Source: an uncultured candidatus Porisulfidus sp.
Lineage (GTDB): Bacteria; Pseudomonadota; Gammaproteobacteria; Poriferisulfidales; Oxydemutatoraceae
NCBI GenBank assembly: GCA_965200865.1
Contig: CBDAVG010000002.1
Location: 2,130,712 to 2,194,711, forward strand
Length of the DNA stretch: 64,000 nucleotides
Reading direction: 5' to 3'
The notes beneath the pieces are model-generated. The model did no database searches. It was not told the origin of the DNA and was given only the letters and a program-made list of their open reading frames with translations. Positions 16,460-20,274 of the stretch are shown here, in pieces (the first letter of the stretch is position 1; each line of letters begins with the position of its first letter). The position numbers were made by a program, and so were the translations under genes.

Positions 16460-17488
16460 ATGATGTACTGGGCAATGCGTACTGACAGGAGATCGTCAGA
16501 TATTCGAGATTTTCTCAACGAAGAGCTGTTCTCAAAGGGTCGGTTACGTCAAGGTTGGGGATGGGACCCCGACCAGGATCTTCGCAAAATGCGAGAAGTA
16601 TGGCGTGAGACTGGGAAGCTCAATGACGCACAGAACGCAGCAAATGGGAATCGATTCATGCTTGATGGAGATCCACCGAATGACCATATGAACGTCGGTG
16701 ATATCGTTCTGGTCCCGAACATGCCGCATAACGGAACCTTTACACTTTGCCGCATCACCGGTCTCTACGAATACAGTGTCTCAGAGCACGGTGAATTTGG
16801 TCATATTCGTCCTGTTGAGGTATTAACACCAAATGGTGTCGCAAACAACCATGAATTGGTTGATGCTGGGCTTCGCAGTAGTATGCGATGCAACCGCCGA
16901 ATGTGGCGTATACCTTCCTACTCTGACTGTCTGGAAGCAATCATACGGAGCAACCTTCCTGCTGAATCCCTTGCGCAGGGTGTCACGGCGGCGGAGCGTA
17001 CAGACAGCCTCGTTACTGAAATCATTGCAGAACCTATCAACTCCATGGCGAACGAGCTTGCAGCTAAGCTCCCTAAACTCCTTAAAGGTGCTGAATGGGA
17101 GACTGGTATCCTGTCTGCATTGGAGCCTTTGTTTCCAGCAACCGTCCGACATACTGGCGGCAGAAGCGAACAAGGCGCAGATCTAGAGGTCATCATTTCC
17201 AACCCTTTTGATGATAGCAGAGATTGGATAGTGCCGATCCAGATCAAAGACCACTATGGTACTGAGGGAGATAGTGTTGTCCACCAACTCGAAAAAGCCT
17301 ACGAGACGCGCTCTGAGAGAGGCATTGTCATTGCTGTGATCCTTCTCGTAACCGAAGCACAACCTTCTCCTGAACTGGAAAAAGAGATGACTCGGCTAAG
17401 CGATGACAAGGGCGTACCGTTCATTTTCTGTAGCGGTGAAGACTTTATGCAAACTCTCGCAAGAGGTTTCCTAAAGAAGCGCATCTAA
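16460..17488 (+). CDS. type IV (modification-dependent) restriction endonuclease candidate: N-terminal EVE/PUA-like domain fused to Mrr-like PD-(D/Q)xK nuclease
   Basis: N-terminus 'YWAMRT...GWGWD...GDIVLVPNMP...FTLCRITG' fits the EVE pattern; C-terminus 'GADLEVIIS...VPIQIKDH' fits Mrr-type D...QxK. Confidence 0.55.
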   Translation: MMYWAMRTDRRSSDIRDFLNEELFSKGRLRQGWGWDPDQDLRKMREVWRETGKLNDAQNAANGNRFMLDGDPPNDHMNVGDIVLVPNMPHNGTFTLCRITGLYEYSVSEHGEFGHIRPVEVLTPNGVANNHELVDAGLRSSMRCNRRMWRIPSYSDCLEAIIRSNLPAESLAQGVTAAERTDSLVTEIIAEPINSMANELAAKLPKLLKGAEWETGILSALEPLFPATVRHTGGRSEQGADLEVIISNPFDDSRDWIVPIQIKDHYGTEGDSVVHQLEKAYETRSERGIVIAVILLVTEAQPSPELEKEMTRLSDDKGVPFIFCSGEDFMQTLARGFLKKRI

Positions 17489-17682
17489 AACAGTGCCGCT
17501 CCTGCTTGAACTAGCTGTCTACAGACCTCTAAACTCAAGTTTGTGCAGAAGGAAAAGACATATTGAACTGCCAATTGACCTGCTAGCCGATTGGTAGTTC
17601 TATTCTGCTCCTACAACTCTATGGAATCCTTTTTCAACAGCTCCACATTACTGCTTTACGCTTACAGCTGTCAAATTTTAGA

Positions 17683-17710
17683 TTGACAAGGTGATTGCAG
17701 TTTCTATAAT
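17683..17710 (+). promoter_or_regulatory. consensus sigma70 promoter (TTGACA-16bp-TATAAT), copy 1
   Basis: 'ttgacaaggtgattgcagtttctataat'; duplicated at 19683-19710. Confidence 0.6.
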
Positions 17711-17755
17711 AAGCGTCCAAAAGGGCATACTGAGAATAACGAATAGGAGTTAACA

Positions 17756-17845
17756 ATGAGACAGATCGCTTTAGATGCCGAGTCCAGCGGGCATAATTTC
17801 CATTCCAAAATAAATCCCCAGCGCAAAGTAGACAAGCAAGATTAG
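17756..17845 (+). pseudogene. decayed 5' fragment of dnaQ-like exonuclease gene (duplicate of 19756..)
   Basis: Translates 'MRQIALDAESSGHNFHSKINPQRKVDKQD*' vs intact 'MRQIALDTETTGFGPSKHRIVEIGCVEIVDRTITGRNFHSKINPQCEV...'; upstream 75 bp ~90% identical to 19680-19755. Confidence 0.75.
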
Positions 17846-17869
17846 TAAATATATTGAAGGAGAAAAAAT

Positions 17870-19630
17870 ATGCGAAATATAACGATACAAGAGGCAATAA
17901 AAAATATCAGTGCGAGGGAGTATCTTCTTCCTGCCATTCAAAGAGAGTTTGTTTGGAACACATATCAAATTGAGCGTTTGTTTGACTCCCTTATGCGAGA
18001 TTATCCAATTGGTACATTTCTGTTTTGGCGCGTAGAAGGTGAAGAAATCGGCGAATTTCAGTTCTATGAATTCTTCCGTTATTATCATCAAAAAGATAAG
18101 AGACATAATGAGAAAGCCGATGTTAAAGGTAAACCTAGTGTTACCGCTATCCTTGACGGTCAACAACGCCTTACTGCACTTTATTTAGGTTTGCACGGGT
18201 GGCATGCTACCAAGTTAAAACATAAACGATGGGATGACCATAATGCTTATCCTCCGAAAAAACTTTATTTAAATTTACTTGCTCCTCCCTCACCAGACAG
18301 TGAATGTGAATATGACTTTAAATTTTTAACAGACAAAGAATCGGAAGAAAGAAACGACAAAGTCTTTTGGTTTCCCGTTGGGAAAGTGTTGGACTTTCAT
18401 AAATCTAACGATTCTTATAAATACCTGCAAGAGAATCAACTAACTGAAATCTCAACAGAGCAGGCAGACTTTGCGAGCGAGACTCTCACTAAACTTAGAG
18501 AAGTTATTCATAAGGACACATTGATAAACTACTTTCTTGAAGAGAATGAACTCCTAGACAAAGTTTTGGATATCTTCATCCGTATAAACAGCGGTGGAAC
18601 GAAATTAAGTTATTCTGATTTGTTGCTTTCTATTGCAACGGCACAGTGGGAAGAAAAGGATGCACGGGAAGTTATTACAAAATTTGTTGATGATCTAAAC
18701 AATATAGGTAACGGTTTTTCTTTTAATAAGGATTTTGTATTGAAGGCTTGCCTTGTCCTGAGCGACTTTCCCAGTATTAAGTTTAAGGTACACAATTTCA
18801 ATAAGAAAAACATGCGCCAAATTGAATCTGACTGGGATAGCATATCAAAGGCTATTGAAGAAGCCGTGGGTCTTGTGTCTAACTTCGGGTTCAATAGAGA
18901 TACTTTGCCTTCTATGAACGCTGTTATTCCCATTGCGTATTATCTGCTGAAGGCACACCCTAATAGTTTTTGTGAATCGTTAAGCCATAAGGAGGAACGA
19001 AACAAGATTTTTAATTGGTTGATTAGAGTTTTGTTGAAGCAAACCTTTGGCGGACAGTCTGACAGCATTCTAAGCAGAATACAGTCAATCATAGGAGACA
19101 ACTATAAAACAGGCTTCCCGCTACATCAGATTGCACGCTCCCTAAGAGTAGAGCCAACAAAGTCCATTATATTTGCACCAAATGAAATAGAAGATCTTCC
19201 CAATCGGCCTAATAATAGATATGCATTCCCTTCATTGGCTGTTGTTTATCCAACACTAGACTTCAGAAATAAGTTTCACAAAGACCATATTTTCCCAAGA
19301 AAATTATTTAGCCGAGAAAAACTGCTTGCGCAGGGCGTATCAGAAGACAAGGTTCAATTTTGTCTAGAAAATTACAATACCTTAGCCAATCTCCAACTTC
19401 TTCCTGGAACAGAGAATCAAGAAAAATCTGCGAAACTTCCTAAAGTATGGATGGACGCTACTATGAATGAACAGGAACAAGAGTCTTACAGGAAGATGCA
19501 CTTCATACCGAGAGATATCCTCTTATCGTTAGATAACTTTAAGGAGTTTATTGAAAAAAGAAGAGAATTGTTGGTTGAGGAGTTCTCAAAATATCTTAAA
19601 ATGTCGGATGACGGTGTTGCTTATAAATAG
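17870..19630 (+). CDS. GmrSD-family type IV restriction endonuclease (DUF262 ParB-like NTPase + DUF1524 His-Me finger nuclease)
   Basis: 586 aa; 'LLPAIQREFVWNTYQIERLFDSL' and 'ILDGQQRLTALYLG' (DUF262 DGQQR); C-terminal 'FHKDHIFPRKLF' (DUF1524); markedly AT-rich relative to neighbours. Confidence 0.8.
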   Translation: MRNITIQEAIKNISAREYLLPAIQREFVWNTYQIERLFDSLMRDYPIGTFLFWRVEGEEIGEFQFYEFFRYYHQKDKRHNEKADVKGKPSVTAILDGQQRLTALYLGLHGWHATKLKHKRWDDHNAYPPKKLYLNLLAPPSPDSECEYDFKFLTDKESEERNDKVFWFPVGKVLDFHKSNDSYKYLQENQLTEISTEQADFASETLTKLREVIHKDTLINYFLEENELLDKVLDIFIRINSGGTKLSYSDLLLSIATAQWEEKDAREVITKFVDDLNNIGNGFSFNKDFVLKACLVLSDFPSIKFKVHNFNKKNMRQIESDWDSISKAIEEAVGLVSNFGFNRDTLPSMNAVIPIAYYLLKAHPNSFCESLSHKEERNKIFNWLIRVLLKQTFGGQSDSILSRIQSIIGDNYKTGFPLHQIARSLRVEPTKSIIFAPNEIEDLPNRPNNRYAFPSLAVVYPTLDFRNKFHKDHIFPRKLFSREKLLAQGVSEDKVQFCLENYNTLANLQLLPGTENQEKSAKLPKVWMDATMNEQEQESYRKMHFIPRDILLSLDNFKEFIEKRRELLVEEFSKYLKMSDDGVAYK

Positions 19631-19682
19631 TAGCTATGTTCCTTTCCCCTAGTTTGTAATATGTTATAGCATCATACATAGA

Positions 19683-19710
19683 TTGACAGAGTGATTGCAA
19701 TTTCTATAAT
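19683..19710 (+). promoter_or_regulatory. consensus sigma70 promoter (TTGACA-16bp-TATAAT), copy 2, upstream of dnaQ-like gene
   Basis: 'ttgacagagtgattgcaatttctataat'. Confidence 0.6.
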
Positions 19711-19755
19711 GAGCGTCCATGAGGGCATACTGAGAATAATGAATAGGAGTTGACA

Positions 19756-20274
19756 ATGAGACAGATTGCATTAGACACCGAAACTACCGGATTTGGACCA
19801 AGCAAGCATCGGATTGTAGAAATTGGTTGTGTTGAAATCGTAGACCGCACTATCACCGGACGTAATTTTCATTCCAAGATAAATCCTCAATGCGAAGTGC
19901 ACGAAGGTGCCACGGCAACCCATGGTTATACATGGGAGATGCTTAAAGATAGTCCGTTGTTCGCTGATATTTGCGATGAATTTATATCCTTTGTACAAGG
20001 TGCACAAATTTTGATACAAAATGTGCCGTTTGATTTGCCATTTTTAGACAGCGAACTGCAACGTTTGGGATGCGGAAATTTTACTGCAGAAGCCCAATGT
20101 ACTGTTGTTGATACGTTGAGAATGGCTGAAAAACGTCACCCTAGAGGTGAAAACTCACTAAATGCATTGTGCAACCATTATGGAATTGATAACAGCCACC
20201 GCAAGTTCCACGGTGCGTTGAAAGATGCGAAGTTATTAGCGCAGGTTTATTTGGCAATGACGAGCGACCAGTAA
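19756..20274 (+). CDS. stand-alone DnaQ/epsilon-like DEDDh 3'-5' exonuclease
   Basis: Exo I 'ALDTETTGF', Exo II 'NVPFDLPFL', Exo III 'HGALKDAKLLAQVY'; ~173 aa. Confidence 0.8.
   Translation: MRQIALDTETTGFGPSKHRIVEIGCVEIVDRTITGRNFHSKINPQCEVHEGATATHGYTWEMLKDSPLFADICDEFISFVQGAQILIQNVPFDLPFLDSELQRLGCGNFTAEAQCTVVDTLRMAEKRHPRGENSLNALCNHYGIDNSHRKFHGALKDAKLLAQVYLAMTSDQ

Follow-up and report, generated by a model that had tools for sequence, protein, structure and literature searches.

A putative mosaic of defence genes next to pyrB in an uncultured candidatus Porisulfidus sp.: a DUF8426 protein, a BrxU-type enzyme and a shortened dnaQ copy

Three intact open reading frames (ORFs) on the forward strand, at 16460-17488, 17870-19630 and 19750/19756-20274, are the subject of this study. 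They lie in a stretch of 64,000 nucleotides from an uncultured candidatus Porisulfidus sp. (contig CBDAVG010000002.1, positions 2,130,712 to 2,194,711), which is called the window here and whose first letter is position 1. Gene 1 codes for a member of the DUF8426 family, gene 2 (brxU) for a GmrSD-family enzyme of the BrxU type, and gene 3 (short dnaQ) for a DnaQ-like exonuclease that comprises the catalytic domain only. A preliminary description of the sequence had regarded these genes as a compact type IV, i.e. modification-dependent, restriction island, and two different stand-alone nucleases of types known or predicted to act on modified DNA are indeed adjacent here; however, the genes are separate units and do not form a conserved trio. 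In our view, the locus is probably a mosaic within a strain-variable defence region, made up of three transcription units that are autonomous and joined at dnaQ-derived repeats, and not a three-gene system.

Each of the three genes is preceded by its own ribosome-binding site, and the gap of 381 bp between genes 1 and 2 holds a solo terminal repeat of an insertion sequence (IS) as well as a perfect sigma-70 promoter. The solo repeat is a scar which separates gene 1 from the brxU cassette. Comparison with relatives delimits a variable segment at ~16160-25346, the bounding core genes being 88-91% identical; on the pyrB side, an identity of 91% to the related loci L006 and L003 persists until ~16160-16229, and synteny is lost beyond. 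The combination of gene 1, a BrxU-type gene and a short dnaQ was present in no other locus examined: L003 contains gene 1, a GmrSD enzyme of a different, opposite-strand subfamily and short dnaQ, L006 carries short dnaQ beside pyrB without a GmrSD gene, and L004 and L008 lack gene 1. The coordinates of the features are collected in Table 1.

Table 1 Features of the locus, its flanks and a protein family of related loci (positions refer to the window unless a locus is named)
Feature	Position	Strand	Evidence or remark
pyrB, aspartate carbamoyltransferase	15142..16236	-	Pfam OTCace_N 6e-42, OTCace 3e-24; conserved left flank
Gene 1, DUF8426-family protein, 342 aa	16460..17488	+	72 homologues; predicted modification-sensing restriction endonuclease
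Gene 1 N-domain, residues 1-172	16460..16975	+	PUA-like beta-barrel of YTH/EVE type (predicted); putative modified-base reader
Gene 1 C-domain, residues ~177-342	16988..17488	+	Long helix and Mrr-type PD-(D/E)xK nuclease (predicted)
Solo terminal inverted repeat of an IS1182-family element	17620..17650		Repeat families D4, D7, I2
Duplicated dnaQ promoter, leader and decayed dnaQ 5' end	17679..17845	+	Direct repeat; in front of brxU
Gene 2 (brxU), BrxU-type GmrSD type IV restriction enzyme, 586 aa	17870..19630	+	Pfam, PADLOC and PDB matches
Short dnaQ promoter and leader	19679..19755	+	TTGACA-16-TATAAT at 19683-19710; AGGAG 7 nt before ATG
Gene 3 (short dnaQ), DEDDh 3'-5' exonuclease domain only, 172 aa	19756..20274	+	RNase_T 3.6e-31
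Pair of IS ends resembling a miniature inverted-repeat transposable element (MITE)	20303..20474		Inverted repeats I3, I4, D10; 29 bp 3' of dnaQ stop
IS1182-family insertion sequence	20636..22390	+	Pfam DUF772 and DDE_Tnp_1_6; inverted repeats 95% complementary (I7)
Family of ~340-354 aa, members in related loci	L004 3043-4062; L008 4063-5100, 7212-8249; L009 2-571; L011 7691-8746; L095 7328-9828		

The shortened dnaQ copies and the brxU cassette

The DEDDh exonuclease under a consensus promoter that had been recognised previously is confirmed by the RNase_T match and a perfect TTGACA-16-TATAAT. Translation of gene 3 is likely to start at ATG 19756, with 19750 as the alternative (174 aa). The protein scores 239.8 bits against the epsilon equivalog NF004316 (cut-off 196), but the match is limited to profile positions 1-173 of 234, and its C-terminus (...YLAMTSDQ*) stops just ahead of the clamp motif, at a point where the long copy P0230 runs on with ...AMTSGQTSISF (clamp motif QTSISF) and a further ~45 aa. 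P0230 is a full-length epsilon of 226 aa encoded on the window's own contig (2,491,028 bp); it matches NF004316 and TIGR01406 over their whole length, passes both models and is 60% identical to the short copy of the window in the catalytic domain. Both forms are present in four further genomes. Of the two roles considered in the preliminary description, housekeeping gene or functional partner, the former is rejected because a full-length epsilon is present elsewhere in the same genome. The passing of the equivalog cut-off and the retention of gene 3 beside pyrB in two relatives would agree with a housekeeping proofreading subunit to which the island is merely adjacent, but P0230, the missing clamp motif and alpha-binding tail, and the occurrence of two short copies, with cargo genes between them, at three related loci already contradict this idea and leave it next to no probability. 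The DEDDh active site is kept in gene 3; without a clamp-binding motif and an alpha-binding tail, the protein would be unable to act in the replisome.

The 3' end of gene 3 is native, because homology to relatives runs ~25-35 bp past the stop codon (to ~20295-20311). Truncation of the exonuclease by an IS was thus rejected, all the more since homologues of 168-173 aa stop at the same residue. Intact short homologues of this length form more than 20 distinct clusters, the catalytic residues D7, E9, D93, H152 and D157 are invariant in the short copies, and ratios of nonsynonymous to synonymous substitutions (dN/dS) of 0.19-0.30 at dS 0.5-1.3 indicate purifying selection. Together with the finding that apparently separate copies always end at the border of the catalytic domain, these features argue against the view that the short copies are functionless by-products of recombination which are heading to decay and of which the promoter alone matters; the decayed, promoter-only copy before brxU described below, dnaQ 3'-end fragments in L010 and recent tandem pairs with a relaxed dN/dS of ~0.5 would be in line with such a view, which we consider very unlikely. 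The PADLOC profile PDC-S48, which stands for a candidate defence protein whose N-terminus is a DEDDh domain, matches gene 3 over positions 9-162 of 411 only, the architecture of PDC-S48 spanning 411-512 aa, and a DnaQ-like exonuclease in defence islands was not found in a literature search.

The promoter of short dnaQ, which is conserved ahead of the short copies in L001, L003, L004, L006 and L008, occurs a second time in front of brxU. The segments 17679-17790 and 19679-19790 form a direct repeat of 86% identity and a spacing of exactly 2000 bp, which includes promoter, leader and the first dnaQ codons, and the perfect promoter (12/12, TTGACA-16-TATAAT) of the upstream copy is located at 17683-17710. 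An in-frame deletion of 69 bp follows, after which the similarity to dnaQ extends to ~17830; the remnant ORF of 29 codons covers 17756-17845. The same remnant, deletion and brxU junction are found ahead of brxU in L004 and L008, and they therefore go back to a single event that created an ancestral cassette consisting of dnaQ promoter, remnant and brxU. The promoter hexamers of the remnant are intact at all three loci, and the promoter of the cassette is retained by selection. A function of the remnant ORF as conserved leader peptide was rejected, its ATG being lost in L004. One short dnaQ copy, decayed to promoter and remnant, would accordingly drive brxU, the expression of which presumably relies on the duplicated promoter.

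The history of brxU differs from that of the adjoining dnaQ. The brxU genes of the window and L004 are 97-100% identical, with ~1 kb at 100%, whereas the remnant is ~80% and the downstream dnaQ 67-77% identical with a dS of ~1.0. The right breakpoint lies within the promoter repeat, and brxU was therefore recently exchanged between islands with long-diverged dnaQ copies. Judging from anatomy alone, the direct repeats around brxU may supply the homology for such recombinational exchange, that is, for looping out and re-insertion.

The contexts of short dnaQ copies were compared at ~11 loci, which come from a few related lineages of similar metagenomes. The copies occupy at least four chromosomal positions (beside pyrB, recA, ahpC-dsbD-groES and amiC-tsaE) and adjoin a BrxU-type enzyme (window, L004, L008, L011), the different, opposite-strand GmrSD subfamily (L001, L003; 'Orf5'/HEC-06-like according to PADLOC), Mrr-type nucleases and an McrB-like ATPase (L008, L010), UzuA GIY-YIG proteins (L006, L008, L009, L010), or PDC-S01 (L008) and a 345-aa family. 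A scan of a genome collection with short DnaQ yielded two loci and a scan of metagenomes 80 loci; the latter all contain canonical long dnaQ and no homologue of these nucleases. The most frequent neighbour of short dnaQ is an uncharacterised family of ~340-354 aa (N-terminus MSEISYF...ENHTTNNTL; Table 1) with a weak PDDEXK_13 hint and no PADLOC match, which is a candidate defence gene. Tracts of 10-12 G residues just upstream of the -35 hexamer of short dnaQ were observed in L008 (5142-5202, 6328-6388) and L092 (~8830), but not in the window, and may represent phase-variable elements or artefacts of long-read assembly.

These contexts bear on the possibility that the three genes form one system in which modified DNA would be nicked or cut by the nucleases, with the DnaQ-like exonuclease as a required partner for enlarging the breaks or degrading the products. 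The proximity of type IV-like nucleases to short dnaQ at every examined locus and at different chromosomal sites, the purifying selection on a short dnaQ with intact active site and the copying of the same strong promoter before short dnaQ and brxU are what such a system would predict. Nevertheless, it is unlikely, because the neighbours of short dnaQ vary in family and orientation (BrxU, opposite-strand GmrSD, Mrr, UzuA, 345-aa family, DUF488, methyltransferase), the copy beside pyrB in L006 has no GmrSD partner, the trio of the window does not recur, BrxU is reported to function by itself in E. coli, and brxU and the adjoining dnaQ differ strongly in divergence. With varying neighbours and an independently exchanged brxU, the previously proposed role of the exonuclease as functional partner probably does not apply either. 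Conceivably, a free 3'-5' exonuclease contributes to defence in a general way, which would explain the retention of short dnaQ.

With respect to origin, the closest relative of a short copy is often the long copy of its own genome (P0117 vs P0220, 86%; P0126 vs P0224, 75%). In L095, the gene order is rnhA, two genes of the 345-aa family, short dnaQ, DUF488, long dnaQ, Bax1-I and GSDH, and short and long dnaQ share 87% DNA identity from 28 nt before the ATG to ~codon 170; L092-L094, which belong to another lineage, contain an Eco57I-like enzyme, rnhA, an N6/N4 methyltransferase, short dnaQ (181 aa) and long dnaQ. The sequences thus compared point to an rnhA-dnaQ hot spot at which dnaQ was either duplicated in part repeatedly or subject to gene conversion. 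Promoter and catalytic domain would be duplicated at this site of defence gene insertion, the resulting copies would be maintained by purifying selection as free exonucleases, and their promoter and 5' region may then serve as repeated junctions between defence cassettes. In a related genome of 2.22 Mb, a defence island (L007 1-7755) is located ahead of full-length dnaQ at the Bax1-I/GSDH locus; it includes Prok-E2, ThiF/JAB (ubiquitin-like conjugation type), a ResIII helicase, AAA_15/21 and DUF488 and fits an insertion hot spot between rnhA and dnaQ.

The BrxU-type enzyme and the DUF8426 protein

The assignment of gene 2 to the GmrSD family (DUF262-DUF1524) holds and can be sharpened to the BrxU type. 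The protein matches PADLOC HEC-05, which is BrxU (Payne et al.), at 3e-224, and it aligns co-linearly with BrxU (PDB 7P9K) over residues 5-571 with 41% identity (E=7e-135). Pfam GmrSD_N (PF03235, DUF262) matches residues 8-254 at 1.2e-32, while GmrSD_C taken alone reaches 0.002 and 18.3 bits, which is under the cut-off of 23 bits. The alignment with BrxU contains the DGQQR motif (ILDGQQRLTAL, VLDGQQRITAL in BrxU) and the His-Me motif (DHIFP...NLQLL) that had been read from the sequence before, the first part of the latter being FHKDHIFPRK (FHVDHIYPKG in BrxU) and its second part NLQLLPGTENQ (NLQLLEGTINNQ in BrxU), with NLQLL-GT-N kept; in addition, the BrxU-specific, nucleotide-binding RLFDS motif is present (IERLFDSL, ICRLFDSL in BrxU). 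The importance of the RLFDS, DGQQR, DHIFP (DHIYP in BrxU) and NLQLL-GT-N residues has been shown by mutagenesis in BrxU and HEC-06. BrxU cleaves DNA with 5-methylcytosine (5mC), 5-hydroxymethylcytosine (5hmC) or glucosyl-5hmC (glc-5hmC) in an ATP-dependent manner, and by homology the product of gene 2 would do likewise: as an NTP-dependent dimer, it may use the DUF262 domain (RLFDS, DGQQR) to control the DUF1524 His-Me nuclease (DHIFP) and degrade DNA bearing these modified cytosines. Gene 2 adds a BrxU orthologue from a new setting.

Gene 1 belongs to DUF8426 (PF28530): several relatives have a precomputed match (PF28530.1), and so does P0001, which is the window protein read from its second Met. 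Most of its homologues have 330-360 aa, and one of them, 31% identical, is encoded on a plasmid of Nitrosococcus halophilus and annotated as 'restriction endonuclease'; no methyltransferase gene adjoins gene 1 in the window or lies near this plasmid homologue. NCBIfam gave no match for gene 1 or gene 2, no homologue of gene 1 was found in the phage collection, and its sequence profile retrieved nothing relevant from the PDB sequences. The AlphaFold2 model of the full-length protein (pLDDT 93.5) comprises two domains. For the C-terminal one, the match to Pfam Mrr_cat (PF04471) is under the cut-off in gene 1 itself (15.8 bits, E 0.016; cut-off 21 bits), but 24 of the 52 aligned relatives are matched, the best at 5e-9. 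E214, G234, E237, G239, D241, Q261 and K263 are invariant in the family alignment, and D241...Q261-x-K263 is, by sequence comparison, an Mrr-style D...QxK catalytic site. Foldseek matches of this domain in the PDB include the FokI cleavage domain, EcoT38I, Nt.BspD6I, the Avs4 nuclease and AF1548.

The model of the N-domain (pLDDT 95.2, pTM 0.90) resembles PUA-fold proteins. Nearly all of its top 50 Foldseek matches in the PDB (prob 0.75-1.0, template modelling (TM) score 0.31-0.57) are YTH domains, YTHDF2/YTHDC1 being matched at prob 0.95-1.0 and TM 0.45-0.55; the EVE-HNH enzyme VcaM4I takes rank 4, and the EVE protein 2GBS is among the matches. The EVE profile (PF01878) matched neither gene 1 nor any of the 52 relatives at E<=0.05. 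By predicted structure, the N-domain is at least as near to YTH, a reader of N6-methyladenosine (m6A), as to EVE. At Pfam thresholds gene 1 alone thus has neither an EVE nor an Mrr_cat match, which formally speaks against the EVE-Mrr fusion of the preliminary description; this is overturned by family-level and structural evidence, and only by these, in favour of a PUA-fold N-domain with an Mrr-type D...QxK nuclease. In view of the structural proximity to YTH, the accompanying proposal of a 5mC/5hmC specificity is not supported as worded. W4, R7, G27, L29-G34, D81, P89, Y103, H115, R147 and W149 are invariant in the N-domain, and the invariant aromatic and basic residues W4, R7, R30, W33, Y103, H115 and W149 are candidates for a binding pocket. 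Gene 1 probably encodes a single-chain, modification-dependent restriction endonuclease, whose YTH/EVE-like domain would bind DNA and probe a modified base that is flipped out, and whose Mrr-type D...QxK nuclease would cut nearby.

A profile search with the N-domain retrieved 987 representative clusters, mostly with the domain at the N-terminus of proteins of ~340 aa. In proteins of 815-1063 aa it follows GmrSD_N/GmrSD_C on the C-terminal side, and it also occurs in front of other Mrr_cat nucleases and mid-chain in a protein of 1060 aa with a weak, sub-threshold match to nSTAND3 (STAND NTPase). The GmrSD-family or nSTAND3-like proteins P0285, P0300, P0301 and P0374 are examples, the former group suggesting GmrSD variants with an added sensor domain. 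As far as sequence comparison can tell, the domain is shuffled among type IV nuclease scaffolds and behaves like a portable specificity module, consistent with the PUA-nuclease design of Lutz et al. (2019, PMC6765204). Gene 1 provides the first anatomical description of DUF8426 as PUA-fold sensor plus Mrr-type nuclease, and a sensor domain common to some GmrSD enzymes is a good candidate for a new modification specificity.

Several points weigh against the mosaic and the functions assigned to its genes. The sample of ~11 loci is small, and shared ancestry inflates the association of short dnaQ with defence genes; the 80 canonical loci are a weak control, as they stem from unrelated taxa and were screened solely with lineage-specific queries. 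The identity pattern of brxU documents recombination without proving that dnaQ repeats were both crossover sites, and the left breakpoint lies inside the brxU 5' end. The persistent co-location of exonuclease and nucleases could reflect a functional link. The activities of the genes rest on prediction from sequence and models; for the N-domain of gene 1 the fold matches are moderate (TM ~0.5, Foldseek E ~1e-3), and neither Pfam, also when applied to the 52 relatives, nor the profile against the PDB connected it with EVE or YTH by sequence. The PADLOC candidate PDC-S02 is distantly related to gene 1, the N-terminus of which it matches weakly and partially (7.7e-5), and its nuclease part is matched by a neighbouring family in L008; one PDC-S02 representative gave no protection against T4, T5 or T7 in one study. 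This result, the lack of a sequence match to EVE, YTH or SRA and the fact that YTH and EVE domains bind mostly RNA (Lutz et al. 2019, PMC6765204) would also suit a gene 1 product that is not modification-dependent, with an N-domain that binds RNA or an unmodified DNA feature or has a regulatory role and with a general Mrr-like nuclease or toxin. We attribute little likelihood to this alternative, against which speak the established combination of PUA fold and nuclease in modification-dependent restriction endonucleases (MDREs; VcaM4I/TspA15I), the missing methyltransferase gene next to gene 1 and near its plasmid homologue, the fusion of the same N-domain to GmrSD type IV enzymes and the location of gene 1 in a defence island that contains further enzymes of type IV.

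Beyond a mosaic, the tail-less epsilon copies with their promoter might form the backbone of an integrase-free, homology-driven system of defence cassettes, an extension that we put forward tentatively and regard as rather doubtful. Partial dnaQ duplication at the rnhA-dnaQ hot spot would create direct repeats. With RecA-type recombination between them, single nuclease genes (brxU, other GmrSD, Mrr, UzuA, DUF8426 and others) could be excised as loops, spread and be inserted again; each cassette would also receive a strong promoter from the repeat, and the free exonuclease would be selected for defence, e.g. degradation of restricted DNA ends, or for cassette turnover. If this is true, defence cassettes can be mobilised and expressed without dedicated recombinases. 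Less expected than the nucleases is the recurrence of replisome-incompetent epsilon copies in nuclease-rich defence islands, with their promoter and 5' region at cassette joints; if the junction pattern holds, a free proofreading-type exonuclease may have an accessory role in immunity.

Flanks and further features of the window

The position of genes 1-3 between pyrB and an IS copy agrees with the preliminary description, both the OTCace domains and the IS1182-family transposase having been matched. The transposase gene (20711-22276) contains an in-frame tandem duplication of 177 bp (21140-21493, units 79% identical), and a second IS1182-family copy (IS1182 by NCBIfam) at 998-2845 is 87-90% identical to the one at the island. 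Many solo IS ends are scattered over the window, e.g. at 5814, 8389, 36065, 40458, 49398, 55746 and 63174. Tandem units resembling MITEs or repetitive extragenic palindromic (REP) elements are located between pyrK and pyrC (13427-13830, copies of 100 nt with a spacing of 141 nt, 88% identical) and carry a GGGGCGGAC...GTCCGCCCC palindrome; related short repeats flank the island at 16189-16273 and 20361-20408.

Downstream of the IS, an ORF of 69 aa with coiled-coil and transmembrane segments (22632-22841, +) is part of a repeated segment. In L006, copies of this segment (9694-10105, 11373-11838; ~430 bp, 91-93% identical) are direct repeats around the DUF8426 gene, and next to the dnaQ repeat they represent a second type of cassette junction. 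An IS1595-family transposase fragment (23146-23475) is enclosed by imperfect inverted repeats of 54 nt (22881-22934 and 23593-23646). It is followed by a dCTP deaminase gene (24030-24686, -; 218 aa; TIGR02274 106.8 bits with a cut-off of 92.8; Pfam DCD 5e-21), located in a low-GC part (0.32-0.38) of the variable region and absent from the matching region of L006; the protein has no PADLOC match and could be a housekeeping dcd product or a defence-linked enzyme of the nucleotide pool.

Two large subtilisin-like proteins are encoded on the reverse strand at 5893-8217 and 8481-11519, the larger one with leucine-rich repeats that resemble those of type III effectors. Along with sox genes flanking the loci of relatives and the IS load, they suggest a host-associated sulfur-oxidising bacterium. 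The sole Rfam match in the window is a bacterial small signal recognition particle RNA (35621-35717, -; RF00169, 66.6 bits), and Rfam and tRNA scans gave no match in or near the three-gene locus.

Comparison with known systems

BrxU is already known, and so are PUA-nuclease fusions, few of which are characterised; DUF8426 is without a characterised member. Gene 2 (586 aa) is close to BrxU (587 aa) in length and shares RLFDS, DGQQR, DHI(F/Y)P and NLQLL-GT-N with it, but it is located outside BREX, Hma or type I restriction-modification loci, alone behind a captured dnaQ promoter. An architecture of dnaQ-derived junctions was not found described in the literature searched, and the present one rests on about a dozen loci of few related lineages. 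The exchange of single-gene nucleases including BrxU in a fixed, strain-variable setting is reminiscent of the defence hot spots and embedded genes reported previously (Payne et al. 2024, preprint, 10.1101/2024.01.29.577857); here, however, a piece of a replication gene, duplicated together with its promoter, forms the recurring frame instead of a multigene defence system, and an integrase gene was not found for this dnaQ-framed setting.

Among MDREs of the PUA superfamily, the EVE-HNH enzymes VcaM4I/TspA15I and PUA-PD-(D/E)XK fusions have been described (Lutz et al. 2019, PMC6765204). Gene 1 shares with them an N-terminal reader-like domain of PUA fold and a C-terminal nuclease in one chain of ~340 aa, without an adjoining methyltransferase. 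In contrast to VcaM4I/TspA15I, its nuclease is of the Mrr-type PD-QxK and not of the HNH class. Similarity to EVE could not be detected in the sequence of its reader, the predicted structure of which is as near to YTH. The D...QxK core is common to gene 1 and E. coli Mrr (Mrr_cat), but the PUA-like domain takes the place of the winged-helix N-domain of Mrr.

Gene 3 resembles epsilon (DnaQ) in all DEDDh motifs and in its match to NF004316. The isolated catalytic domain of DNA polymerase III epsilon of E. coli is known as epsilon186. The short dnaQ differs from epsilon in being a second, sometimes a third, copy, in its location within defence islands and in a divergence that is faster than that of the core genes on either side.

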